From: an uncultured Alphaproteobacteria bacterium
GTDB taxonomy: Bacteria; Pseudomonadota; Alphaproteobacteria; RF32; CAG-239
Direction of reading: 5' to 3'
DNA length: 64,000 bases
Assembly (NCBI GenBank): GCA_944390315.1
Contig: CALXPO010000022.1
Span: 1,093 to 65,092 of the forward strand
Numbering within the stretch: position 1 is the stretch's first letter; each line of letters opens with the position of its first letter. The notes beneath the pieces were generated by a model. That model was not told the DNA's origin. It did no database searches and saw nothing but the letters and a program-made list of their open reading frames with translations. Of this stretch, positions 10,867 to 54,116 are shown piece after piece. Both the position numbers and the translations under genes were made by a program.

Positions 10867-12048
10867 TTAACCGTCGTTTTTAACCATCATATAGATAATA
10901 AAGTCTCTTGCCCATTGCAATCCCTCAACGGGGGTTGATTTTCCGAAAGCAAGCATGTTGTCATCTGTAATAATGGCGAGATAGTAGCTGTCGGAAGCGG
11001 GATTGTATACGACCTGAATATCTCTGATTTTATCCAGATGGATATATTCTTTGGCGGAAAGGAAAAGGAATTTATGCACCAAAATGAGTTTATTGTCTTT
11101 TATGACAATTTTATCTTTTCTAAACATGAGGCCCAAGAAGAAGACGGCTAACCCAACGGTGACGACAAAGAAAACAATGGTTTGCAAGGGGGAGCCGATC
11201 ATTCGTTCAATGCGGGTATAATTGAGTGCGGCAATCAACAAAATCAGCAAATAGAAGAAGAGCCAAAATGCAGCCAACAAGCTCAGGACATTCCAAAACA
11301 TTCGTTTAGGTTTAATAATGGTTCTGTCGCTTTTTTTGATACATACGACATCTTTTGGTGCTTTAGGTTCTTGTTCATATAAATCAATCATTCCTTTTAA
11401 ATATAAAAATTCTTTGAGATTTTTGTTAAGTTCGGAGACCTCTCGAACCACGCTTCCTTCATCGGTTTCGATAATTGTCGGCATATTAAGTCTTTTGGCG
11501 TAATAATCCCATATTTGATATATGCCGGTACCGTCTGTTGAAATGTAAAGAGGAATGGTTTTGGCGGGGTCACGGTGAACGAGTTCAATAATATATTTAT
11601 TTTTATTGAGGAGACCGAATTGGAAAAATTCCATTCTTAAACGAACACCTTCATAATTGCGTAAAAATTCTTTAAATAATTCATTTTTGCCAAAAACACC
11701 TTTTAAGTCGACAGAGAAAGTTTTGCCGTTAAAAAAGATTTTTTTGTATCGCATATGGCATACGATGGCGCTGATAATAATCCCGAGCCCGAGGACAATA
11801 AACACCAAATCGACAGCTCTGTGGTCAAACAAAGGCGGGCGCGTATTTTCATCCAAAGTATAAACCCAGCCTTCGGTACTATACATTCCGTTAGATAATT
11901 CAAAACAACCGAGTATAAACATTAACAAACCAAGTATAATGGCTGGCATAACGACTTTAAGAGGCATTCTGTCGGCATGTTTGGTCGGCATTTGTTCAAG
12001 TTTGAGTTGATAATCATAACTTAAGTGCTTAGGTAATTTTTGGCGCAT
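10867..12048 (-). CDS. hypothetical membrane protein with two TM-hairpin plus beta-domain halves
   Basis: 393 aa; two pairs of TM helices, each followed by a soluble beta-rich segment. Confidence 0.65.
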   Translation of the reverse strand: MRQKLPKHLSYDYQLKLEQMPTKHADRMPLKVVMPAIILGLLMFILGCFELSNGMYSTEGWVYTLDENTRPPLFDHRAVDLVFIVLGLGIIISAIVCHMRYKKIFFNGKTFSVDLKGVFGKNELFKEFLRNYEGVRLRMEFFQFGLLNKNKYIIELVHRDPAKTIPLYISTDGTGIYQIWDYYAKRLNMPTIIETDEGSVVREVSELNKNLKEFLYLKGMIDLYEQEPKAPKDVVCIKKSDRTIIKPKRMFWNVLSLLAAFWLFFYLLILLIAALNYTRIERMIGSPLQTIVFFVVTVGLAVFFLGLMFRKDKIVIKDNKLILVHKFLFLSAKEYIHLDKIRDIQVVYNPASDSYYLAIITDDNMLAFGKSTPVEGLQWARDFIIYMMVKNDG

Positions 12049-22733: not shown

Positions 22734-24173
22734 ATGTCATTACAAGATTTACAAGAACATATACGCAAGGGCAGTACAAAAATAAAAGAACAAGCGGAAA
22801 AAGCCCGCAAGGCAGTGGGAGTTGAAAAAGTTGCTACGGTAGTTGCTTTTGCCAGTACGGTAGTTCCCTCCATGGCTGGTGAAAAGACGCTGCAAAATCA
22901 GGAAAACCCTGCAAACGAAGTTAGAATAGAGCAAGTTCAAACTGCAGTATCCAATCAATCGAACGAGCAAAATAATACGATTGACCTATTTGGTGTGCCT
23001 ATTACGCAAGAAAAAGGCACCAACGGCGTATATAACGAGATTAACGGCACGCCCATATCACCTTACGAACTGGATGGTAAAGAACTGAATAAGGAATGGA
23101 AACAAGAAGAAAAAGAACTTTTTGCCAATGCCAGTGAAGATGTCGTAGAAAAGGTTTCACTAGCTGAAATGGCTGATGGAGCCGCTGCATATTATGACTA
23201 TGAAAATAAGAATATTACGACTAAATATATAGATATAAGCGATGACGTCATAGAACGTTTGGCTGATAATTATGTTAAGAACAATCCATCTTTGGATGAA
23301 AATGTTGCAAAACAGCAATTTTATTCGGCGATAGGTATGATAAAAGAGCTCAACGATCCGCAATCATTAACAGCCAAATGCCTTCGTGCGCATGAAGAAC
23401 AACACAGAGTTAATGACGAATTGGGGATATATGCACCGGGTTTGTCTCCCGAGCAATATGCCGAACTGAATAAATATGATGAAATTTCGGCCAATGTGAG
23501 TGAATTGAACGGAATCTTAACGGAATATAACAAGTCTCTTAAATCGGGAAAGACAAAAGAAGAAGCCTTAAAAGTATTTGATAGTGACATAGATAAACGT
23601 TTTACTTTTTATAAGGAAGCCTTGGCTAACGGACTTGATGCCGATAGTAAAGAAGGGAAGAAACTAATGGTCGAGGGTACGACCAAAATGTGGCAAGAAA
23701 AATATCAATCGCATTATTATAACCAAGTTACAAATAAGGGAATAAATGCTGTTGATCGAAGCGATGCGGCGACTACGGCTCTCGGCAATGAAAAGGAATT
23801 CAATAAAAGAATAAGTAAAATGTTTGACAAGATTTGCAGTAATGAGTACTGCAAGCAACAAGGCATAAAATCTCCCGGAAACTTAAGCCAATACATCGGT
23901 GATGAAAAGATAGGCTTGGAAGCAAGTGAAAAAGAAGTCATAGCTGAGGAAGTTGAAAATCAAATAGGCTTGAGTGCCGATGCCCGCGAACAAATAGGGG
24001 ATTCAATAAAAGGCAAAACAGATAAAGGTAAAATAAAAAATTTCTTGAAAGTTTTGACAGGTCGTAAATCTCCCGAGCAGGTTACAGCTAAAAAAGATAA
24101 TAAGGATAAAACGCAAAATCTGGATATGACGGCTCAAATAGCAAAAGCCAAACAAAATGAACAAAATTATTAA
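22734..24173 (+). CDS. hypothetical protein with HExxH motif (putative secreted zinc metalloprotease-like)
   Basis: 479 aa; N-terminal hydrophobic stretch; RAHEEQH followed by a downstream DEISA; strong RBS and promoter. Confidence 0.7.
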   Translation: MSLQDLQEHIRKGSTKIKEQAEKARKAVGVEKVATVVAFASTVVPSMAGEKTLQNQENPANEVRIEQVQTAVSNQSNEQNNTIDLFGVPITQEKGTNGVYNEINGTPISPYELDGKELNKEWKQEEKELFANASEDVVEKVSLAEMADGAAAYYDYENKNITTKYIDISDDVIERLADNYVKNNPSLDENVAKQQFYSAIGMIKELNDPQSLTAKCLRAHEEQHRVNDELGIYAPGLSPEQYAELNKYDEISANVSELNGILTEYNKSLKSGKTKEEALKVFDSDIDKRFTFYKEALANGLDADSKEGKKLMVEGTTKMWQEKYQSHYYNQVTNKGINAVDRSDAATTALGNEKEFNKRISKMFDKICSNEYCKQQGIKSPGNLSQYIGDEKIGLEASEKEVIAEEVENQIGLSADAREQIGDSIKGKTDKGKIKNFLKVLTGRKSPEQVTAKKDNKDKTQNLDMTAQIAKAKQNEQNY

Positions 24174-30574: not shown

Positions 30575-31996
30575 GTGAAAAAAGACTACTCTAAAATAAA
30601 AAATGATGTAAATCAGGTGAGAAAAGTGAAACAGCAAAAAAAACATTATTCATGTGCTCAAGGTTTGGCCGCTGCCGCGGTCAGTTTTGCTCTGGGTTTG
30701 GCGGTCATCTTGTTTGCGGCGGCCGCGTTAACTGACCGGCGACCGACAATCAATGTATATGAAACTTCGGAAAGCCGAGACGGCGCGCGTCGTGCCGAAG
30801 AGATATTTTTGGCCAAACGCATTGTGAATGTGTTGGAACCTTTAGTCGGCAAAAATAAAGTAAAAGCCGAAGTTTCACTCGATGTCGATTATGATACCGT
30901 TGCCACCAGCGAAGAAATGTATGATCCAAACGGACAGGTCTTGCGTTCGTATAAAGCGGCACAAAATTTTGCCAGCGAGGGCGAATATGCCCTTAACAAA
31001 TATAATCGACTGATTGTCCAAAACGGCGGACAAATTAAACAAATGTCGGTTCTGGTTTTGATTGAAGGAGTTAAAAAAGGTGATGAATATTTTGCTCATT
31101 CTTCAAACGAACTCAATGCTTATGCCGCTTTAATCACACCGGTTATCGGTTTTGTTGCCGAACGCGGCGACAGATTGCAAATCGAAAATTATCGTCCGCA
31201 AAATTCATCTTCTTTTGTTTCGGCTAACTGGGGCTGTTTGCTCGGTATTATCATAATTTTGATTTTACTGTGGTTGATTAACAAAAAACCGCAAGAAAAA
31301 ACACCAAACAAAAAAAATCAACTGCCTTTATGGGATAAATTGGAACAGTCGGATGGTAAGAGCCTTGCCGAGTTTTTACGGAATGAAAATCCTGCAATAA
31401 CGGCTTATGTCCTCGGAAAACTCAGTCCCGATACGGCTTCATCCGTGCTCAATGCACTGCCGATGGCAACAGCCGTTGATGTTCTGTTGGCCATGAGCGA
31501 AAATGCGCCGATAACACGAGAAGTTGCAAAAGCCATAGAGCAATCTTTGACAAACTCATTGTTTCAAGAAAAAAAACGTGAACGTCAAAGTGTTTATAAA
31601 CTCTTTTCTTTGATGAATTTGACTAAACAAAAACAAATGCTGGAAGTCTTGGAAAAACAGAATTCACCTTTGGCTGATAAATTACGTGAACTGATGTTTA
31701 ATTTTGAAGATTTTGTGAATGTCTCTGACAAAGATATCAGACGTCTGTTCGATGATGTTGAAGCCGAAAGATTAGCCGTAGCCTTGCGCGGTGCTTCCGA
31801 AAAATTAAAACAACATCTTTTTGCCAATATGTCTTCGGCAGCGGCGGAATATGTTCAAAAACAGATGAATGAAATGGGACCTGTACGTCTGATTGAAGTT
31901 GAAAAAGCTCAGGCAGAAATTATCTGTTTGGCACAATCTTTGGCATCCCGCGGAAAAATAAGTCTGGACGATACAAAGAGCGGAGGTCGACATTAA
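30575..31996 (+). CDS. truncated FliF (RBM3 ring domain)-FliG (middle and C-terminal domains) fusion protein
   Basis: TM (aa ~29-52); FliF C-terminal motifs LEPLVG..KVKAEVSLDVDYD, EEMYDP..VLRS, IKQMSVLVLI, IGFVAERGD; second TM (aa ~218-235); FliG motifs WDKL..LRNENP, MFNFED, ALRGA, NMS..MGPVRL. Confidence 0.88.
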   Translation: MKKDYSKIKNDVNQVRKVKQQKKHYSCAQGLAAAAVSFALGLAVILFAAAALTDRRPTINVYETSESRDGARRAEEIFLAKRIVNVLEPLVGKNKVKAEVSLDVDYDTVATSEEMYDPNGQVLRSYKAAQNFASEGEYALNKYNRLIVQNGGQIKQMSVLVLIEGVKKGDEYFAHSSNELNAYAALITPVIGFVAERGDRLQIENYRPQNSSSFVSANWGCLLGIIIILILLWLINKKPQEKTPNKKNQLPLWDKLEQSDGKSLAEFLRNENPAITAYVLGKLSPDTASSVLNALPMATAVDVLLAMSENAPITREVAKAIEQSLTNSLFQEKKRERQSVYKLFSLMNLTKQKQMLEVLEKQNSPLADKLRELMFNFEDFVNVSDKDIRRLFDDVEAERLAVALRGASEKLKQHLFANMSSAAAEYVQKQMNEMGPVRLIEVEKAQAEIICLAQSLASRGKISLDDTKSGGRH

Positions 31997-32415
31997 TGGT
32001 CCAAAAAGAGATTGAGTCCAATAATATAAAAATTACGGATGAAAATGCTCCCGCCGTTTTAGATTTGTCAATTAATCGTCCTTTTGTTCCAAAATTTGAA
32101 CCCGATGAGCAAAATAATCAACAATTACTCAGTCGCATACAAGAGCTTTTGCAACAAACTAAAAAAGAAGCTAAGGATAAACAGAACAGATTTGAAAATT
32201 TTCCGCTTGATATGACAGTAGAATTCGGTCAAATTGAGATAAACAATAGTGATTTGAAAAACATAGAAAACGGCATTGATACAAAAGTTAAGCACAATAT
32301 CGGCGATAATGTCAATATTTGCTTAAACGGTCATCTTGCTGCTAAGGGAAAGCTCATGTCAAAAGATGGCAAACTTGGCGTATTGTTGACCCAGATAGTA
32401 AAAATCGAGGAGTAA
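31996..32415 (+). CDS. FliN/FliM C-terminal (SpoA) domain protein
   Basis: PLDMTVEFG..NICLNGHLAAKGKL..GKLGVLLTQI pattern; ATG overlaps the stop of the fusion gene. Confidence 0.8.
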   Translation: MVQKEIESNNIKITDENAPAVLDLSINRPFVPKFEPDEQNNQQLLSRIQELLQQTKKEAKDKQNRFENFPLDMTVEFGQIEINNSDLKNIENGIDTKVKHNIGDNVNICLNGHLAAKGKLMSKDGKLGVLLTQIVKIEE

Positions 32416-32417
32416 AA

Positions 32418-33365
32418 ATGCGAATAAAAAAATTCGTCGATAACGATATGATACGTTTAATGCACCGTGTTAAAGAAGAGTTGGGAGACGAAGCGGTTAT
32501 TGTATCTACATCACAAACGGCTGACGGACGCAGTGAATTGGTTGCGGCTGTTGAAACGGATGATGTTGAATTTTCGGATAAGGACGAACCACAAATTTAT
32601 GCGGCTTCATATAGCGATGCCGTCATTCGCGAACGTCTTGATTTTCACGAAACAGGAGCTTTGGCACAGGCAAAATTACTGTCTTTATGTCGCCGCAAAG
32701 CTATTGAGGCAAATCTGAAAGATGATGCCGAAATTTTAACGTCTGTTTTGAGTGATTTGTTTACCACGTATGACATTTTGGATAAAATTCACCCCATAAA
32801 AGTTTTTGTCGGTTTACAAGGAAGCGGAAAAACGACAGCCTTGGTTAAAACGGCGGCTTTAGCTCATTTTAAGGGTCTGTCTGCGGCTATTGTCAGTATG
32901 GATACGGTTAGAGCCGGAGCCAATGCGCAATTACGAGCTTTTGCAGGGATTCTGGGCGTGGAGTTTAATCCGCTGACACATGCTAAAGAATTGCTGCAAA
33001 CGATTCGACAGGCGAGCGCAACAAATGATTTGGTGCTGGTTGATACTCCCGGATTAAATCCGTTTTCAGCAGATGACAATGAGCGTCTTAAAGAGCTTGT
33101 TGCAGAGTCAGGCGGAGAAACCATATTAACACTTGATGCCGGATATAATGCTTATGATGCAGGAGAAACCGGATTTTTGTTTGCGCAAGCCGGTGCAACA
33201 TGTTTGCTTCCGACAAAATTAGATTTATGCCGAAGAATGGGCGGGTTGCTGTCAGCAGCGGTAGAAGGAGGTTTTCGTTTGGGCTGGGCATCGGTCAGTT
33301 CCAATATAACTAATGGGTTAACATCTTTGGATATGCCGTCATTGGCGCGGGCTCTGTTGGCTTAG
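32418..33365 (+). CDS. flhF: FlhF-like SRP-family GTPase
   Basis: N-terminal MRIKKF..VKEELGDEAVIVS; G1 GLQGSGKTT, DTVRAGANAQL, DTPG, TKLD. Confidence 0.88.
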   Translation: MRIKKFVDNDMIRLMHRVKEELGDEAVIVSTSQTADGRSELVAAVETDDVEFSDKDEPQIYAASYSDAVIRERLDFHETGALAQAKLLSLCRRKAIEANLKDDAEILTSVLSDLFTTYDILDKIHPIKVFVGLQGSGKTTALVKTAALAHFKGLSAAIVSMDTVRAGANAQLRAFAGILGVEFNPLTHAKELLQTIRQASATNDLVLVDTPGLNPFSADDNERLKELVAESGGETILTLDAGYNAYDAGETGFLFAQAGATCLLPTKLDLCRRMGGLLSAAVEGGFRLGWASVSSNITNGLTSLDMPSLARALLA

Positions 33366-33372
33366 GGGAGTT

Positions 33373-34176
33373 ATGATGGAGCAGTATATCAGAACAGATT
33401 TCAAAGATTTACGCTTACAACAAGCTAACCGAATGATTGCAATTGCCTCAGGCAAAGGCGGAGTCGGTAAAACGTGGTTTTCCATCACGTTAGCACATGC
33501 TTTGAGCGCGATGAAACAAAAAACACTGTTGTTTGACGGCGATTTGGGAATGGCCAATATTGATGTGCAATTAGGACTGATGGTGCCTTTTGATTTAGGA
33601 AATGTTGTTACCGGTGCCACAACGCTCAATCAGGTTGTCCATTATTGCGACAAGTGCAGATTTGATGTTATTGCCGGACGTTCCGGTTCGGGCGGATTGG
33701 CTTCAATGCCGATAGGGCGGTTACAAATTTTGGCAGAAGATTTAGCATTGCTTTCGGGATCGTATGATAAAGTCATTTTAGATATGGGAGCAGGGGTCGA
33801 AAAATCGATTCGTATTTTATCAGGTATGTCCGGACGTGTGATTGTCGTATGTACCGATGAACCAACGGCCCTAACGGACGCTTATGCTTTTATCAAATTA
33901 ATGAATATGCAATATCCCAAATGCCGCTTGGAAGTCGTTGTTAATCAGGCCGAGAGCTTGCGTGAAGGTAAGCAGACATTTGACATTTTGCAAAAAGCAT
34001 GTCAAACCTTTTTAAAAATATCGCCGCCGTTGCTGGGAATTGTACGCCGAGATGCTCGTGTTCGTGATGCCATTCGCAGCCAGATGCCGCTAATCAGCCG
34101 TTACCCGACTTGCGAAGCCGCGGAAGATGTGATTGAAATAGCTCAAAAGATTTTGCAGGATGAAAAAAATGTATAA
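33373..34176 (+). CDS. flhG: FlhG/FleN MinD-like ATPase
   Basis: ASGKGGVGKT deviant Walker A, DGDLGMANID, DMGAG, EPTALTDAYAFIK; directly after flhF. Confidence 0.9.
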   Translation: MMEQYIRTDFKDLRLQQANRMIAIASGKGGVGKTWFSITLAHALSAMKQKTLLFDGDLGMANIDVQLGLMVPFDLGNVVTGATTLNQVVHYCDKCRFDVIAGRSGSGGLASMPIGRLQILAEDLALLSGSYDKVILDMGAGVEKSIRILSGMSGRVIVVCTDEPTALTDAYAFIKLMNMQYPKCRLEVVVNQAESLREGKQTFDILQKACQTFLKISPPLLGIVRRDARVRDAIRSQMPLISRYPTCEAAEDVIEIAQKILQDEKNV

Positions 34177-35320
34177 TCAAGATCCTTTAGAATATTATCA
34201 AATTTTGGATGTTTCGCCCGATGCCGATGCAAAGACCATCAAACTTCATTATCGGGATAAAGCAAAAGAATGGCATCCCGATTATAACAAAGCTGAGGAT
34301 GCAATAGAACATTTTCAAAAACTCTCCGTGGCATATGATATATTGCAAGACGAGAATAAGCGTTTGCGATATGACTTGCTGGCCTGCATTTATGATAAAG
34401 ATAATTTTCCTCAGATGGATGCGCTGAGCATTTTGAAAGATAGGATGAACGAAGAAAATCCAGATGTCCGAGCTTTTGACTTACGTTATGTTTTCGGCAA
34501 GATTATTAAATTTTCACATCGTGAAGAGCGTCTTATTTGTACGGAAAAGCAAGCACTTAATGAAATTCTGAAATGTTCTCTGTCTAACTGGCTTTGCGGC
34601 TGGTGGGGAATAAAATCTTTCGCAGTCAATTGTCGGGCTCTGATTGCCAATTATAAACATATCGGTACCAATCGGCAGGACAATTTAACCGTATTATTGC
34701 ATAATGCTTTAGCCTATGATGAAGAAAAAAAGGAAAAAAAATCGCTTTACTCTGCAATCTTAGCTTTGGAATATGCTTTGCCCGAGCAACGTCCGTTGAT
34801 AGAACGTTTTATTAAAAGGTTAGGCGGAAAAGTTCAAAAGCCGCCGCGTTGGCGTTGGTTTAGGTTAAAAGCCGCTAATTTACTAGTACCGTTTATTCTG
34901 TTGATGGTTATCTTGTCGCCGATTGCAAATTCTGTGTTTGGCGGCCTGCAACAATATGTCAGAAAAGAAAACGAAATTACCTATTTTCAAAAAGTTCAAT
35001 TTAACAATGGCGGTGAAACTTTTGATGATATTGTCGTTTCTAAGATTTTTGATATTCCGGTTGATATTTATGATGACAAGATGCTTTATCACCTCAAAGC
35101 CGATACGGATGTGATGTATGGTCCGGGAGACAAATTTGATGTTATGGCGAAAGGAGTTGAGGGACAAACGGTTCGTTTAACCGGATTTACGCCGGATAAG
35201 AGTTGGTATAGGATTATGCTTGATAACGGTGAAATGGGTTTTGTTGAGAAAAACGCTGTTGAACAAGGTATGGGTAAAGCGCCGTCCATCGGGAGCAAAA
35301 TCGTGGCCGAAACACGATAA
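34160..35320 (+). CDS. J-domain membrane protein with C-terminal SH3-like domain
   Basis: YYQILDV..WHPD..AYDIL J domain; WLCGWWGI; TM LLVPFILLMVILSPI; C-terminal YGPG..V..G..WYRIML..GEMGFV. Confidence 0.82.
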   Translation: MKKMYNQDPLEYYQILDVSPDADAKTIKLHYRDKAKEWHPDYNKAEDAIEHFQKLSVAYDILQDENKRLRYDLLACIYDKDNFPQMDALSILKDRMNEENPDVRAFDLRYVFGKIIKFSHREERLICTEKQALNEILKCSLSNWLCGWWGIKSFAVNCRALIANYKHIGTNRQDNLTVLLHNALAYDEEKKEKKSLYSAILALEYALPEQRPLIERFIKRLGGKVQKPPRWRWFRLKAANLLVPFILLMVILSPIANSVFGGLQQYVRKENEITYFQKVQFNNGGETFDDIVVSKIFDIPVDIYDDKMLYHLKADTDVMYGPGDKFDVMAKGVEGQTVRLTGFTPDKSWYRIMLDNGEMGFVEKNAVEQGMGKAPSIGSKIVAETR

Positions 35321-49592: not shown

Positions 49593-51248
49593 ATGTTGGT
49601 TAAGGTACTTTTTTTGCTTCTGAGTGCCGGAATAATCTCAGAATTTGTTCCCAAAAATCGATTGCCGATTCTATGGTCGCTGATTGCTTCTGCCGCAGTT
49701 GCCTTTTTTATCTATATGTTAACTCAATTGGGACCAACACCTGATTTAAAAATTGATTATCCTTGGTTAGAAATTCCTAATTTGGCGGTAAATCTGGATA
49801 TTATACTCAATTCTCATAATATTCATTTGGTGTTTGCGTTGTCAGTTTTGGCTTTTCTTGTGCTTTTGCAAAGTGCTTTTGGCGAAGAAAAAGAAAAAAA
49901 TACCTTTAACGGATTGGTTCTGCTAAATTTGTTTTCGGCATTGATGCTTGTCTTTGCTGATAATTATATACAAATGCTGGTAGCCGTCGGTGTTTGCGAT
50001 GTATTGGTTTTTAGCGTAATCAATAACATTGAAGCCAAAAAAACATATATTTATGCAAATTTTCTGGCCGATATCGGCTTGTTGAGTATATTTGCCGTTA
50101 TCCTCGGACAAGGGGGCGGGCTGGATTTAAAAAATTTGGCGGATTATGCCAAATTCGGCCACCACAAAGATTTTGTGGCTATCATATTGTTGGTATGTAT
50201 TTTTATCAAAACAGGTCTATTCCCATTTCATGGTACGTATGTCAAAATGCGTCAAATCGGTTTTAACCGCCTGAACTATGTCTTATACGCAGCAACGCCG
50301 TTGACCGGTTATTTGTTGTTGTTAAAAACAGAGCCTTTGTTGCAAATTTCCCATTACTCCTACCCCTTGTTGCAAATTATGGCCTTATTGTCTTTAGTAT
50401 GGGGGTGTGTGGGAGCCGTAACAATTGATAATTTAAAACAGAAAAATGTATATTTTGCATTAATGTTTTGGGGATTTGCTTATGGCTTTACGGCTTTTGG
50501 TACCAGATTGGAAGATTTCTATTTTGCTTCAGTCTTAACAATGTCTTTTTTGTTTGGACAGATTTTGCTGTTGGCTTACAAAATCTGTTCCAATGAAATA
50601 TATGTTTCTGAAACGGGAGGATTTTTACCTAGAGTCAAATTTACGTTTTTACTTATCATTTTGGTGATAAGTTCATTTTATGCCGTTCTGATGGTTCCGG
50701 TGCAACAAAATCTCTGGTTGAGCATTGTATACGGAATTATCTTTTCCATAGTTTCGGCCCATGTGCTTTCTCAAATATTACTTGGCCCAAGTAAAGCAGA
50801 CGACAGAGTTCAGGCTATGGCTAAAAATCCATCGATTTTGCTTTGGCTGCCGATGGCAATAATCGCATTTGCCGTATTATGGCATTTTAAGCCCTCAATC
50901 ACCTCGCTTTTACTATGCGTATTTACGTGGATACTGTTATTTGTATATAGGCCGCTCAAGCGCTTTGATTATTTGTATGAAAAAGATAATATTCAAAAAG
51001 CGGATTATATATCTGAAGTGTACAATTTATTGATTGTTACGCCGATTACGGTGTTTGGGCGTTTGTTGTGGGTAACGGTAGAATTCGTTTTCTTTGAGCG
51101 AACCATCATCAGCTCAATACAAAAATGTCTAGATTTTATGGTCTTTTTGTTTCGCCGTATCCATTCCGGTACTTTTTTGGGAGCTGTCGCTTTTACGACA
51201 GTAGGAATTTTGGTTATGTTTGTGGCTTGGTGGTATGGGAATAGATAA
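49593..51248 (+). CDS. nuoL: divergent NuoL-like antiporter-type subunit
   Basis: Polytopic; NFLADIG, IKTGLFPFH; C-terminal transverse-helix region ending in IHSG plus a final TM. Confidence 0.72.
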   Translation: MLVKVLFLLLSAGIISEFVPKNRLPILWSLIASAAVAFFIYMLTQLGPTPDLKIDYPWLEIPNLAVNLDIILNSHNIHLVFALSVLAFLVLLQSAFGEEKEKNTFNGLVLLNLFSALMLVFADNYIQMLVAVGVCDVLVFSVINNIEAKKTYIYANFLADIGLLSIFAVILGQGGGLDLKNLADYAKFGHHKDFVAIILLVCIFIKTGLFPFHGTYVKMRQIGFNRLNYVLYAATPLTGYLLLLKTEPLLQISHYSYPLLQIMALLSLVWGCVGAVTIDNLKQKNVYFALMFWGFAYGFTAFGTRLEDFYFASVLTMSFLFGQILLLAYKICSNEIYVSETGGFLPRVKFTFLLIILVISSFYAVLMVPVQQNLWLSIVYGIIFSIVSAHVLSQILLGPSKADDRVQAMAKNPSILLWLPMAIIAFAVLWHFKPSITSLLLCVFTWILLFVYRPLKRFDYLYEKDNIQKADYISEVYNLLIVTPITVFGRLLWVTVEFVFFERTIISSIQKCLDFMVFLFRRIHSGTFLGAVAFTTVGILVMFVAWWYGNR

Positions 51249-52688
51249 ATGGAAAATTTAAAAAATCTTGTTAATATAATTATCATAATCCCTTTACTCG
51301 GAGTTTTCTTTACGTCACTTTCACGTGAAGACAACAAAAGCCGTCTCAGTAATGCTTTTTGTGTCGGGGTTTTTACCATTTTATCAAATCTGATTGTTTT
51401 GTGGCGTGCAGCTTTGCAGATTAATATAGGTAAAGACAGTTGGCAGGTTGTAGAAAAATTTAACTGGATGGAAAATCCCAAAATCGAATTGGTATTTGGA
51501 ATTGATGTGTTTTCACTCATGCTGATAGCCGCAGTACATATTGCGGTATTGCTCGGCATGATAGGTATTCGTCGCAACACATATAGGCAAAAGGCGTTAA
51601 TTGTTTTTGCCTTGATGTTTTTAAGTCTGATAAGCGGCTACTTTTTGGCTTCGGACTTTTTTTCTTTCTATATCTTTTTTGAAGCCTTACTGCTGCCGTT
51701 GTTTATGATGATAGGTATTTTTGGAGACATAAAAAAGCAGCAAATTTTATATCGTTTCTTCTTGTACAATCTTTTGGGAGCCGTTTTTCTCTTTGTGGCG
51801 TTGATGGCTCTATATAATCATCAAAACGTAAGCATTCGGGAAGTCAGTCAAATTGTTTTGTCAGGACATGGCGAAGTACTGGTTTGGGGATCTATTTTTA
51901 TTGCCTTTTTATCAAGAATACCGATTTGGCCGTTTCACTACTGGATATCTTCGGTCAGCGTCAATATCTCAAATCCACTGGTTTTTATGGTAGCTAATAT
52001 TATTCCGTTGACAGGAGTTTACGGTCTGATACGCTTTTTCCCGGTTAATGCACCGGAAGTATTACGCCCCTATTTGTTGATTCTGGAAATTATAAGTATT
52101 GTGACAATGCTGCTGATATCATTGATAGGTATCACCAAAAAAGATATTCAGTATAAGATATTTGCATATATGACGGTGTACTATATTATGTATTTGCTGG
52201 GTGCGTTGCTGCCGACAGATGCTTTATTGATGAATATAGGTTTTTCTCTGTTTTCTTATTTGATTATTGTTGCTGCGTTGGAAGTCATGGTTGCGCATAT
52301 AGATAATCAGAGACAAAGCGGAGAAATTAGCGATTGCGGCATTTTGTGCAGTATTCGCCGCAGTTCCGTCGTATTTTCATTTCTGATTTTGGCGGCAATA
52401 GGAATGCCGTTATCTTCCATGTTTTTGAATAATATGGTCATTTTGTCCGGATTGATGAAGTTTAATATAAAAATGGCGGTGTGCATATTGTTGGCAATGG
52501 TTCTTAGCGCCATAGGTTTGCTGCAACATCTTTTTTATTTGAAATATCCTCCCGAAAAAGATGAAATGAGTTTGAATTTTAAAGAAAACGAAATTGAAGA
52601 TATATCCATGAGGGTTTTTGGTGTCATGATTATGACGGCGGCACTTTTGGTTTTATCATTTATAAATCCGTTATGGTTTATTGGCTAG
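51249..52688 (+). CDS. nuoM: divergent NuoM-like subunit
   Basis: WM..I.L.FGID.FS, FYIFFEALLLPLF..IGIFG, FFLYNLLG, PIWPFHYW, IGMP. Confidence 0.82.
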   Translation: MENLKNLVNIIIIIPLLGVFFTSLSREDNKSRLSNAFCVGVFTILSNLIVLWRAALQINIGKDSWQVVEKFNWMENPKIELVFGIDVFSLMLIAAVHIAVLLGMIGIRRNTYRQKALIVFALMFLSLISGYFLASDFFSFYIFFEALLLPLFMMIGIFGDIKKQQILYRFFLYNLLGAVFLFVALMALYNHQNVSIREVSQIVLSGHGEVLVWGSIFIAFLSRIPIWPFHYWISSVSVNISNPLVFMVANIIPLTGVYGLIRFFPVNAPEVLRPYLLILEIISIVTMLLISLIGITKKDIQYKIFAYMTVYYIMYLLGALLPTDALLMNIGFSLFSYLIIVAALEVMVAHIDNQRQSGEISDCGILCSIRRSSVVFSFLILAAIGMPLSSMFLNNMVILSGLMKFNIKMAVCILLAMVLSAIGLLQHLFYLKYPPEKDEMSLNFKENEIEDISMRVFGVMIMTAALLVLSFINPLWFIG

Positions 52689-52697
52689 GAGATAAAA

Positions 52698-54116
52698 ATG
52701 ATTGTCAAATATATTGCTCTATTACCGGAAATAATTTTAATTTTGGGTATTGGGCTGCTGGCGATGGTGCGTATTTTTCGCTCTGCTAATACCCAAAAAA
52801 CGTTTTATACCATTAGTAAATGGACCTTAATCTTAACCATAGCGGCAACAGTGATTTTTTATAATCGCAATGTTGGAGAGTTTTGGCAAAACAATAATTA
52901 CACAACCTTATTTAAAATATGCATATACCTGCTCTCCATAGGTTGGGGTGTCTTATCGCTCAAAAGATTTCAAAATAAAGAGTATATCAGCTTTTGGTAT
53001 TATTTTTTAATATTGATAAATTTATTGTGTTTTGCCATAGCTTTGTCATACAGTTCCTTATTGTTGTTAGCAATGATGTTAACATTTTGCCAAATTTTTA
53101 ATTTCTTCTTACTTAGGCTGGATGTAGAAGAAGACGAGATGAGCTGCAGTTGGAAATATCTGTTGCTTTCAATGTCTTTTTGCCTGCTATTATGGGTAGG
53201 GGTATTTATTTTATGGCATTTGACGGGTAGTTTTGATTATATGGCTATCAAAAATTATTTGTCTAATCCCGAGCATCTGAATAAACAGATAAGTTTGGCT
53301 TTTGTCTTGATAACAATATTCTTTTTGTTTGCACTTGGGGTGGCTCCGTTTCACTTTTGGTATGCCAATGTGGTTTCTTGTGTTATTTTGCCGGTTGCCG
53401 GATATTTAACTTTTATTCCGACTTTGGTCTATTTCTCAATATTTGTGAATCTGATGAATAATGTTTTGGCACCGCTCTACGGAACATATGAAAATGCCAT
53501 TTTATTTTTTGGTGTGTTATCGGTATTTATGGGAGCAATCGGTGCCAACAGCGAAGATAATTTGCGCAAAATTTTTGCCTATGCCGGTCTGTATTATATA
53601 GGTGTGGTCATTATAGCCGCGGCCGACATGCAGGATCAGAGTTTACAAGGGGCTTTTATTTATCTTTTTGTGTATATCTTAGCATTTTTCGGGGTTTATA
53701 CGGTTTTTGCCGGCTGCCGCAGTAAGGGGGATTATTTGCATAATTTGGATGAGGTGCGAGGGCTTTCCACTCAAAGACCGCTTTTGTCGGCAACTTTGCT
53801 AGTGTTGATGATTTCACTCATCGGTACGCCGCCTTTGGTCGGTTTTTTGGGAAAACTTTCGGTAATTAATGCGTTGGTTGTGAGCAATCACTATGGATTG
53901 ATGGCGGTAGTTGCATTCTCGGTGCTGATTTTGGCTTGTGTTTATTTGAGGGTTATTACCGCGGTTTATTTTGAGCCGAGAAACATCAATTTTGATCGTG
54001 TCGATAAAGAGGTATATATTTGTATTGCAATAAATGTTATTTTAATTGTAATGACTGTTCTTAATCCGAAATATTTGATGCATGATGTTGAAATGATGTT
54101 AAACGTCAACTTGTGA
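52698..54116 (+). CDS. nuoN: divergent NuoN-like subunit
   Basis: LLPEIIL, KYLLL, APFHFW, SLIGTPPLVGFLGKL, YLRVI; followed by birA. Confidence 0.82.
   Translation: MIVKYIALLPEIILILGIGLLAMVRIFRSANTQKTFYTISKWTLILTIAATVIFYNRNVGEFWQNNNYTTLFKICIYLLSIGWGVLSLKRFQNKEYISFWYYFLILINLLCFAIALSYSSLLLLAMMLTFCQIFNFFLLRLDVEEDEMSCSWKYLLLSMSFCLLLWVGVFILWHLTGSFDYMAIKNYLSNPEHLNKQISLAFVLITIFFLFALGVAPFHFWYANVVSCVILPVAGYLTFIPTLVYFSIFVNLMNNVLAPLYGTYENAILFFGVLSVFMGAIGANSEDNLRKIFAYAGLYYIGVVIIAAADMQDQSLQGAFIYLFVYILAFFGVYTVFAGCRSKGDYLHNLDEVRGLSTQRPLLSATLLVLMISLIGTPPLVGFLGKLSVINALVVSNHYGLMAVVAFSVLILACVYLRVITAVYFEPRNINFDRVDKEVYICIAINVILIVMTVLNPKYLMHDVEMMLNVNL

Follow-up and report, generated by a model that had tools for sequence, protein, structure and literature searches.

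A 473-residue open reading frame (ORF) with a GTG start, located at positions 30575–31996 of the forward strand of a 64,000-nucleotide stretch of DNA from an uncultured alphaproteobacterium (assembly GCA_944390315.1, contig CALXPO010000022.1; hereafter the window), encodes a fusion of truncated FliF and truncated FliG. We read this gene, at a probability of about 0.45, as encoding a non-rotating, export-less remnant of the flagellar membrane/supramembrane (MS) ring and cytoplasmic (C) ring that has been exapted as a membrane platform; a piece of a flagellar motor appears to have been given a new task. The components of this reading differ in strength. That the fusion is not a motor is held with high confidence, and it is very probable that the gene is under selection, and so functional, a selected relic rather than a decaying gene in a genus without a flagellum. 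That the protein works with FlhF and FlhG as a spatial platform is a tentative proposal, somewhat more likely to be wrong than right.

The fusion comprises, from the N- to the C-terminus, (i) a basic tail followed by a first predicted transmembrane helix (residues 27–53; 30653–30733), (ii) a periplasmic domain resembling the RBM3/β-collar region of FliF (residues 67–210; 30773–31204), (iii) a second predicted transmembrane helix (residues 217–235; 31223–31279) and a linker of about 16 residues, (iv) the FliG middle domain (residues 252–330; 31328–31564), and (v) the FliG C-terminal domain (residues 359–466; 31649–31972), which contains the torque-helix segment NMSSAAAEYVQKQMNEMGPVRL (31826–31891). 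These features, and the neighboring genes described below, all lie on the forward strand. The reading frame is free of internal stops, and its stop codon overlaps the start of the next gene by 1 nt. In the Pfam scan, the protein displays matches to FliG_C (121.2 bits, cut-off 23.3), FliG_M (54.8 bits, cut-off 25), and YscJ_FliF_C (PF08345, 70.3 bits), the first being the only FliG_C match in the whole genome. RBM1, RBM2, the FliF C-terminal tail, and FliG_N are all gone from the fusion: no FliG_N (PF14842) match appears at E-values up to 0.01, and YscJ_FliF (PF01514), the family of RBM1/RBM2, is not among the matches.

An AlphaFold2 monomer model built from 15 homologues, with a mean predicted local distance difference test (pLDDT) score of 67, discloses the same layout, comprising a helix at residues 27–53, an α/β domain at 68–206, a second helix at 217–235, and an all-helical region at 252–458 (pLDDT ca. 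76–90) within which the FliG_C region reaches ca. 80–90. The first helix coincides with a hydrophobic stretch in which A33, A34, F38, G41, and L42 are invariant in 15 fusions, and would be expected to span the membrane. Structural superposition with Foldseek matches the helical part of the model to FliG (PDB code 4fhr_B, E-value 1.8e-14) and to the FliG C-domain 1qc7 (target template modelling score 0.87–0.96), and the α/β domain to the RBM3/collar rings of Salmonella and Vibrio FliF (7cg7 and 6sd1, target score about 0.58). The family profile, in turn, finds the middle and C-terminal domains of Thermotoga maritima FliG (FliG_MC; 1lkv, E-value 2e-47) and Salmonella FliF (6scn, E-value 7e-14). 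An earlier reading made from the sequence alone had supposed that the FliG fold is maintained, and these comparisons support it. Against the NCBIfam models of the full-length proteins, the fusion scores 133.4 bits for FliG (TIGR00207, cut-off 226.7) and 35.6 bits for FliF (TIGR00206, cut-off 129.75), both under the cut-off. The protein holds domains of FliG and FliF, yet it does not qualify as a working FliG or a working FliF: it displays no FliG_N and no RBM1/2, keeps two of the five stator residues and only the E-x-P of the EHPQ motif, has no FliM or stator gene found alongside it in the genome, and scores below the cut-offs of the full-length equivalog models.

In E. coli FliG, the charged residues K264, R281, D288, D289, and R297 contact the stator, and the EHPQ/EYPQ motif together with R160 contacts FliM. 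The BLASTP alignment of the fusion with E. coli K-12 FliG (29% identity over 207 residues, E-value 3e-24) begins at E. coli residue 116 and is gap-free in the C-terminal segment, pairing K264 with R405, R281 with A422, D288 with K429, D289 with Q430, and R297 with R438 (31886–31888). EHPQ (residues 125–128) is aligned with ENPA (residues 271–274; 31385–31396), A306 takes the place of R160, MFLFEN is aligned with MFNFED, and GPVRL is identical in both proteins. Two of the five stator-facing residues are consequently kept and three of the five FliM-site residues (EHPQ plus R160) are lost. The sequence-only reading had located these changes at 31385–31888, which corresponds exactly to E271 through R438; its account of R281, D288, and D289 replaced by A, K, and Q, of EHPQ reading as ENPA, and of MFxFED and GPVRL as conserved structural motifs holds at every position.

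To place these substitutions within the family, residues were counted in a MAFFT alignment deduplicated at 97% identity, comprising 55 canonical alphaproteobacterial FliG proteins, 19 fusions, and 7 of the shorter forms described below. In the canonical proteins every position is preserved in 55/55, including E125, Y/H126, P127, Q128, and R160 at the FliM site and K/R264, R281, E/D288, D/E289, and R/K297 in the C-terminal domain, and the charges are likewise all kept in the eight close flagellated relatives compared (8/8), so that the substitutions do not occur in the flagellated relatives surveyed. A tally of the five stator-facing residues gives 54–55 of the 55 canonical proteins. The fusions display a different picture, with R281, D289, and R160 each kept in 0/19. 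Position 281 is occupied by A (10), E (4), D (4), or Q (1), position 288 by K (13), E (3), Q (2), or S (1), position 289 by E (11), K (5), or Q (3), and position 128 by A (13), S (3), V (1), G (1), or Q (1), whereas basic residues are retained throughout at position 264 (R in 18, K in 1) and position 297 (R in 10, K in 9). The Q at position 289 is peculiar to the close kin of the window protein, an acidic E being found there in 11 of the 19. The seven short forms preserve E(Y/C)PQ in every case and carry R (4) or E (3) at position 281, E (5) or Q (2) at 288, and A (7) at 289.

Of the 77 positions with a conservation of at least 95% in canonical FliG_MC, the window protein retains only 32, the remaining 45 being lost; that three of five stator residues and three of five FliM-site residues have gone is accordingly in line with how far the protein has diverged overall. 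A preferential loss of interface residues was considered and rejected on the same grounds, the interfaces having been lost at the background rate. Several positions have, in addition, become fixed to new residues, including V132Y (18/19), T235N (17/19), L239F (18/19), L251F (18/19), R252D (18/19), K256A (17/19), E320K (15/19), and 288K (13/19), which argues for new constraints on FliG_C beyond mere freedom to vary.

The genome that contains the window is a draft of 1.56 Mb in 27 contigs, rated 100% complete. Pfam searches over all six frames, which found the families in E. coli, B. subtilis, Caulobacter, and Thermotoga, returned no FliM, FlhA, flagellin, FliP, rod protein, MotB_plug, or CheW in this genome. 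When 41 E. coli flagellar and chemotaxis proteins were compared with it by tblastn, the cluster was matched only by FliF, FliG, and FliN, and MotA, MotB, and FliM gave no match. Elsewhere in the genome, the matches comprise two close ones to FliI on contig C20, taken for ATP synthase subunits, weak sigma-factor matches to FliA, one weak match to CheA, and five response regulators matched by CheY, two of them also by CheB; the FliA, FliI, CheY, CheB, and CheA matches are all read as generic paralogues. The sole MotA_ExbB-family gene of the genome is followed directly by an ExbD/TolR-family gene and is thus assigned to a TolQR/ExbBD-type pair. These searches favor both functional predictions of the sequence-only reading, that stator coupling is lost so that rotation is unlikely (no MotB plug is found, and the only MotA-family gene is paired with ExbD/TolR) and that FliM binding is probably lost (the genome, for all its rated completeness of 100%, yields no FliM). 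Absence cannot be proved from a draft assembly; FlhA is likewise not found in any of the nine genomes sampled from the genus. The possibility of a non-flagellar type III system was also weighed and rejected, since searches of the genome for FHIPEP, the FlhA family, which also covers SctV, and for FliP found nothing.

The distribution of the fusion was followed in a sample of 120 genomes of the family, comprising 23 genera. FlhA is present in 14 of these genera and in 0/9 genomes of the genus of the window; FliG_C is present in the same 14 genera and in 9/9 genomes of that genus, and in 0/47 genomes of the other eight genera that lack FlhA. Among 23 further genomes of the genus that are at least 90% complete, 22 carry a FliG-like gene, with ORFs of 467–484 residues in nine, a contig-end fragment in one, and 361–372 residues in twelve; the remaining genome (G002, 92% complete) displays no FliG_C. 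A word-index search recovered 15 proteins of the fused architecture at 39–100% identity, including that of the window, and an exhaustive search recovered five 50%-identity clusters of the fusion family together with more distant single-chain RBM3-FliG proteins. The related loci that come from named records belong to metagenome-assembled genomes labelled ‘uncultured Azospirillum sp.’ or ‘Alphaproteobacteria bacterium’. In a FastTree phylogeny of FliG_MC, all 33 relic rows group together as a single clade (support 0.93), and their branches are roughly double the length of those in canonical FliG; the fusion has a single origin, basal to a genus of Alphaproteobacteria with small genomes in which the remaining parts of the flagellum were lost. 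Within this clade, the RBM3-bearing form of G017 clusters with the short forms (support 0.75), indicating that the fusion is ancestral and that RBM3 was lost later.

Two observations accompany this distribution. Distant single-chain proteins of 454–648 residues with the order transmembrane helix, RBM3, transmembrane helix, FliG were recognized by eye in public metagenomes (P0025, P0026, P0027, P0031, P0039, and P0028); some display the canonical EHPQ and torque-helix charges (P0039), others are partly degenerate, and P0028 also seems to keep a FliG_N-like stretch. In G007, the short FliG-like gene occurs twice (C75:3081–3695 and C102:11713–12327) with identical scores, possibly reflecting redundant contigs and not a true duplication.

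Selection was assessed through pairwise ratios of nonsynonymous to synonymous substitution (dN/dS) by the Nei-Gojobori method (NG86) in unsaturated species pairs, which are simple pairwise estimates and not codon-model tests. The fusion gives 0.10–0.18 in six such pairs, compared with 0.01–0.06 for the threonyl-tRNA synthetase (ThrRS) gene, 0.00–0.02 for flhG, 0.04–0.14 for flhF, and 0.05–0.12 for the DnaJ-like gene. When the four closest pairs of fusions are split into domains, the values are 0.02–0.09 for RBM3, with 0–0.03 in the collar segment, 0.06–0.27 for FliG_C, 0.07–0.26 for FliG_M, 0.28–0.43 for the second transmembrane helix and linker, and 0.27–0.45 for linkers, where constraint is weakest. 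Purifying selection acts on the folded domains and is much weaker on the linkers.

The gene order ThrRS, GT4 glycosyltransferase, α/β hydrolase, fusion, FliH′/FliN, FlhF, FlhG, and DnaJ is preserved in all loci that are sufficiently long. The locus of flagellated relatives comprises flgD, flgE, fliF, fliG, fliH, fliN, a sigma-54 activator, flhA, flhF, and flhG, an order from which internal deletions produced the relic cluster. Directly downstream of the fusion, a 139-residue protein (31996–32415) joins a putative FliH remnant in its N-terminal 40 residues, with the motif PAVLDLSINR, to a FliN (SpoA) domain, the latter matched by Pfam FliMN_C (PF01052; residues 65–135, 37.7 bits, cut-off 23.8) and by NCBIfam FliN at 44.6 bits, under the cut-off of 84. 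The protein has no FliH match of its own in Pfam or NCBIfam. By eye, the same motif heads separate proteins of 167–182 residues in sister species, of which that of L106 reaches Pfam FliH at 24.5 bits (cut-off 24.1) and that of L026 NCBIfam FliH at 51 bits (under the cut-off of 235); FliH remnants and the canonical FliH of flagellated relatives have an F-x-F-D-N-F start in common. The remnant is therefore a putative FliH, named from one borderline Pfam match, one NCBIfam match below the cut-off, and the shared start. As a separate observation, also by eye, (V/I)(L/F)DL(S/A)(I/V/L)N(R/K/H) follows F-x-F-D-N-F in 12/12 remnants and in 0/2 canonical FliH proteins compared. This genus-specific motif is kept even where the rest of FliH is deleted or where it is fused to FliN (L024–L034 and L106–L112), and the copy in the window (31996–32120) is without the FDNF part.

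The cluster continues with an FlhF-like GTPase of the signal recognition particle type (315 residues; 32418–33365), which matches Pfam SRP54 at 77 bits, displays GLQGSGKTT, DTPG, and TKLD in its translation, and scores 114.7 bits for NCBIfam FlhF (TIGR03499), under the cut-off of 174. An FlhG/MinD-like ATPase follows (267 residues; 33373–34176; Pfam CbiA/ParA/AAA_31), whose best NCBIfam matches are MinD models, under their cut-offs, with no FlhG-specific model among the matches; it is placed after flhF, as in the flhA-flhF-flhG order of flagellated relatives. FlhG is 79–87% identical among fusion-bearing species, and its gene is always in the cluster, including in the most reduced species (L111), which retains only the FliG-like gene, flhG, and dnaJ. 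The end of flhG is overlapped by a gene for a 386-residue protein (34160–35320) with an N-terminal J domain (Pfam DnaJ, 67.8 bits), a hydrophobic segment, and a C-terminus of weak SH3-like character (SH3_3, 17 bits, below the cut-off). In every locus, flhG and this DnaJ-domain membrane gene either overlap or lie end to end (33373–35320 in the window), and they stay adjacent in 6/6 loci from genera without FlhA and FliG (within L118–L124) and in G078; in flagellated relatives, a DnaJ-like match is found further downstream in 3/8 loci. Because the pair is adjacent even where neither FlhA nor FliG is present, the arrangement suggests that FlhG and DnaJ form a module whose role does not depend on the flagellum. 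In species that lack FlhF, the P-loop of FlhG reads SGKPGVGKT or SGKSGVGKT instead of SGKGGVGKT (L108:9588–10385; L109:7570–8367, minus strand; L112:10100–10897), a change that could alter the ATPase behavior of FlhG.

Taken across the genus, the loci compose a graded series comprising (i) type A, with a fusion of about 460 residues, a FliH remnant of 170–176 residues, FliN of about 86 residues, FlhF, and FlhG; (ii) type B, that of the window, with the FliH N-terminal motif alone fused to FliN (92–153 residues; 139 in the window), FlhF, and FlhG; (iii) type C, with a protein of 357–363 residues that preserves both membrane helices and displays a loop of about 40 residues in place of RBM3, together with the FliH remnant, FliN, FlhF, and FlhG; (iv) type D, as type C with a FliH remnant of 59–73 residues (L108 and L112) and no FlhF; and (v) type E, with the tethered FliG, FlhG, and DnaJ only (L111).

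In polar flagellates, FlhF and FlhG place and count flagella; FliF forms rings of about 33–34 subunits, FliN is the base of the C ring, and the N-terminus of FliH binds FliN. It is these placement and C-ring genes that have been retained beside the fusion. In the remnant, the FliF C-terminal tail and FliG_N, which make up the normal non-covalent junction between FliF and FliG, are deleted and a linker joins the parts covalently; with the stator and FliM gone, R281, D288, D289, H126, Q128, and R160 would, on our proposal, have been free to change. The fusion would reside in the inner membrane, its RBM3 domain facing the periplasm and its FliG_MC part lying just beneath the bilayer, and would most likely still assemble as a membrane-anchored platform, probably a ring where RBM3 is kept, for which the strong constraint on the collar is indirect evidence. 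The MinD-like ATPase FlhG would be positioned or regulated by this platform, which would itself be placed by FlhF and would act as a spatial landmark rather than as a motor. The anatomy, the missing partners, the single origin, the conserved operon, and the purifying selection are shown by the data, and from them we infer the ring assembly, the docking of FlhG, and the cellular role. The fusion would be unable to rotate anything, and with no FlhA, FliP, rod protein, or flagellin found there is nothing left to turn or to export.

FlhF is reported to direct FliF to the cell pole (PMC11236974). The closest precedent is Campylobacter jejuni, which has no Min system and in which FlhG requires the MS ring and C ring to stop polar division, with minicells formed by fliF, fliG, fliM, fliN, and fliY mutants and not by fliH or fliI mutants (PMC3228812, PMC6946799). 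C. jejuni thus displays a motility-independent job for FliF, FliG, FliN, and FlhG in cells without MinC/MinE, and the set retained here is nearly that set; on the other hand, C. jejuni has complete rotating flagella and FliM/FliY, whereas here the rest of the flagellum is not found and MipZ is present. It is this precedent, together with the failure to find MinC or MinE in the genome of the window, that leads us to favor a platform positioning FlhG. A complex prediction for FliG_MC (residues 250–466) with FlhG scored 0.49, the best of three controls reaching 0.00, with runs agreeing in at least 73% of contacts and a partner pLDDT of at least 80, which lends weak support. In the calibration of this score, the mark is reached by 116 of 157 solved complexes and by 2 of 215 mismatched pairs, and at values of 0.60 or less lie 18 of the 157 solved complexes and both passing mismatches, counts that are approximate given the custom alignments.

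Several observations weigh against this role or against the platform as a whole. The score of 0.49 falls in a band where, short of a pairing that was already likely on other grounds, predictions are wrong more often than they are right. The FlhG-DnaJ pair occurs without any FliG in the six loci of other FlhA-less genera and in G078, and an FlhG-like gene is found in 23/23 genera, so that FlhG does not need the fusion in FliG-less lineages. MipZ is strongly matched in the genome of the window (260 bits, C25:83579–84340) and MinC is found in 0/121 genomes of the family, with or without FliG; these data accordingly neither call for a replacement of Min nor single one out. Piecemeal erosion of the cluster is seen as well, with RBM3 gone in the short forms, FlhF in L108, L109, L111, and L112, and FliN and the FliH remnant in L111, which looks like slow decay within the genus, and the dN/dS of the fusion is 2–10 times that of the flanking ThrRS and FlhG. 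The MinC distribution, MipZ, the FliG-free FlhG-DnaJ pair, and the loss of cluster pieces are among the reasons for placing the role with FlhG at less than even odds. Two further lines were set aside. The idea, modelled on Campylobacter, that MinC was lost only where FliG was kept is uninformative with MinC in none of the 121 family genomes, and the identity of FlhG to that of the genus, 68–76% in most flagellated genera and 32–47% in FliG-less genera, was not taken as evidence of co-constraint, being confounded by phylogeny and having exceptions (flagellated g24 gives 38–41% and g32 43%). The fullest version of the proposal, a flagellum-derived organelle in which the FliF-FliG ring or FliG tether, with FliN, the FliH peptide, FlhF, and FlhG, forms a pole or division-site landmark positioning FlhG, is doubtful.

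One rival reading is that of a functionless leftover, a gene decaying slowly after the flagellum was lost and kept for the time being only through chance or through polar effects on flhG-dnaJ, which lie downstream in a tightly packed operon. Stepwise loss of RBM3, FlhF, the FliH remnant, and FliN among species, the raised dN/dS relative to the neighbors, the uniform loss of 45/77 canonical-invariant positions, branches twice the length of canonical FliG, the genome of G002 without FliG_C, and the eight other FlhA-less genera that have flhG-dnaJ and no FliG all fit such decay. Yet the frame is open in 22 of the 23 further genomes and in that of the window, though the fusions are only 39–47% identical between species, dN/dS remains at 0.10–0.18 overall and at 0.02–0.09 in RBM3, several positions are fixed to new residues in 15–18 of 19 fusions, and operon polarity gives the amino-acid sequence no protection; we consider this explanation improbable. 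A somewhat better, still unlikely, alternative retains the exapted scaffold and changes its key partner from FlhG to the DnaJ-domain membrane protein, or gives the RBM3/collar ring a periplasmic role apart from FlhF and FlhG. The collar is the most constrained part of the fusion (dN/dS 0–0.03), many invariant residues lie at 113–138, and the dnaJ-like gene overlaps flhG, is always present, and encodes a hydrophobic segment and a weakly SH3-like C-terminus. However, forms without RBM3 occur in 12 of the 22 genus genomes, and other genera have kept FlhG and the DnaJ-like protein although they possess no FliG.

The charge pattern itself permits another interpretation, in which the charges are re-patterned rather than lost and the fusion remains a torque-receiving rotor on a non-canonical 5:2 motor, such as the TolQ/TolR-type pair of the genome. 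K264 is conserved as R in 18/19 and R297 as R/K in 19/19, position 289 is acidic in 11/19, R252D, E320K, and 288K are new conserved charges, and the one MotA/ExbB-family gene has an ExbD/TolR partner; but rod, hook, filament, export gate, FliM, and MotB plug are not found, which leaves nothing to turn, FliG_N is deleted, and the short forms are missing the ring-building domain, so that we regard such a rotor as very improbable. That fliF and fliG were joined by an assembly or gene-calling artefact deserves practically no credence: the source is indeed a 27-contig draft, but independent assemblies of many species display the same architecture and the same junction (second transmembrane helix, short linker, and the W-x-K-L start of FliG_M), RBM1/2, the FliF tail, and FliG_N are absent rather than frameshifted, and there are no internal stops. 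The exapted platform remains the reading that we prefer.

Compared with canonical FliG (PF14841 and PF01706; 1lkv, 4fhr, and 8umd), the fusion preserves the folds of the middle and C-terminal domains, the MFxF hinge, ALxGA, and GPV(R/K)L, and the K264 and R297 equivalents as basic residues, whereas it is without FliG_N, is covalently tied to the membrane, has R281, D288, D289, H126, Q128, and R160 replaced, and comes from a genome in which no FliM or stator is found. In common with FliF (6scn and 7cg7), two membrane helices flank an RBM3/collar-like domain; in contrast to it, RBM1, RBM2, and the FliG-binding tail are missing and the periplasmic part measures about 160 residues instead of about 400. 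Functional fusions of FliF and FliG carrying deletions have reportedly been obtained in Salmonella. Full-length Vibrio FliF-FliG fusions have been engineered for ring purification and S-ring structures (PMC10941966, PMC11481574), and one such chain, in PDB 8z4d, comprises 945 residues. According to these sources, FliF precedes FliG in one polypeptide and the constructs still form rings; those are complete proteins in working motors, whereas the present fusion is natural, is missing about half of each protein, and comes from a genome with no flagellum genes found beyond the relic. A search of full-text literature returned engineered FliF-FliG fusions and work on flagellar relics, and no natural truncated fusion in a non-flagellated lineage, which papers beyond the scope of that search may describe.

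Elsewhere in the window, a 551-residue ORF without a Pfam match lies directly upstream of two adjacent Proton_antipo_M genes of the NuoL/M/N or Mrp type (49593–54116), and two further ORFs belong to no Pfam family, one of 479 residues adjoining a Sel1-repeat protein (22734–24173) and one of 393 residues (10867–12048).

Buchnera possesses basal bodies, a reduced flagellar set that retains the export apparatus. The non-flagellated Lysobacter enzymogenes OH11 is reported to keep the genes of its flagellar type III secretion system (PMC7688988). In all these bacteria a flagellar part has been kept after the loss of motility; those two keep the export apparatus, whereas here searches for FlhA and FliP found nothing, and what remains are genes of the ring and of assembly regulators. 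Flagellar reduction is usually portrayed, as in these two cases, as a shedding of the outer parts while the export core stays. The present locus is the reverse: in more than 20 species, selection has maintained ring proteins together with the FlhF/FlhG system for placement. It offers a natural experiment on the functions of FliG, FliN, FlhF, and FlhG apart from motility and on the FliG residues that are held solely by stator and FliM contacts, and the graded series, from ring plus FliG through tethered FliG to FliG with FlhG only, shows which pieces depend on which. If the fusion is a landmark, the conserved FliG_C surface formed by R252D, K256A, 288K, and E320K would be a new docking face and not drift, the genus would provide the first case of the ring and C ring, and not the export apparatus, outliving flagellar loss, and it would show in isolation what the C ring does apart from motility, a function hinted at by C. 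jejuni.

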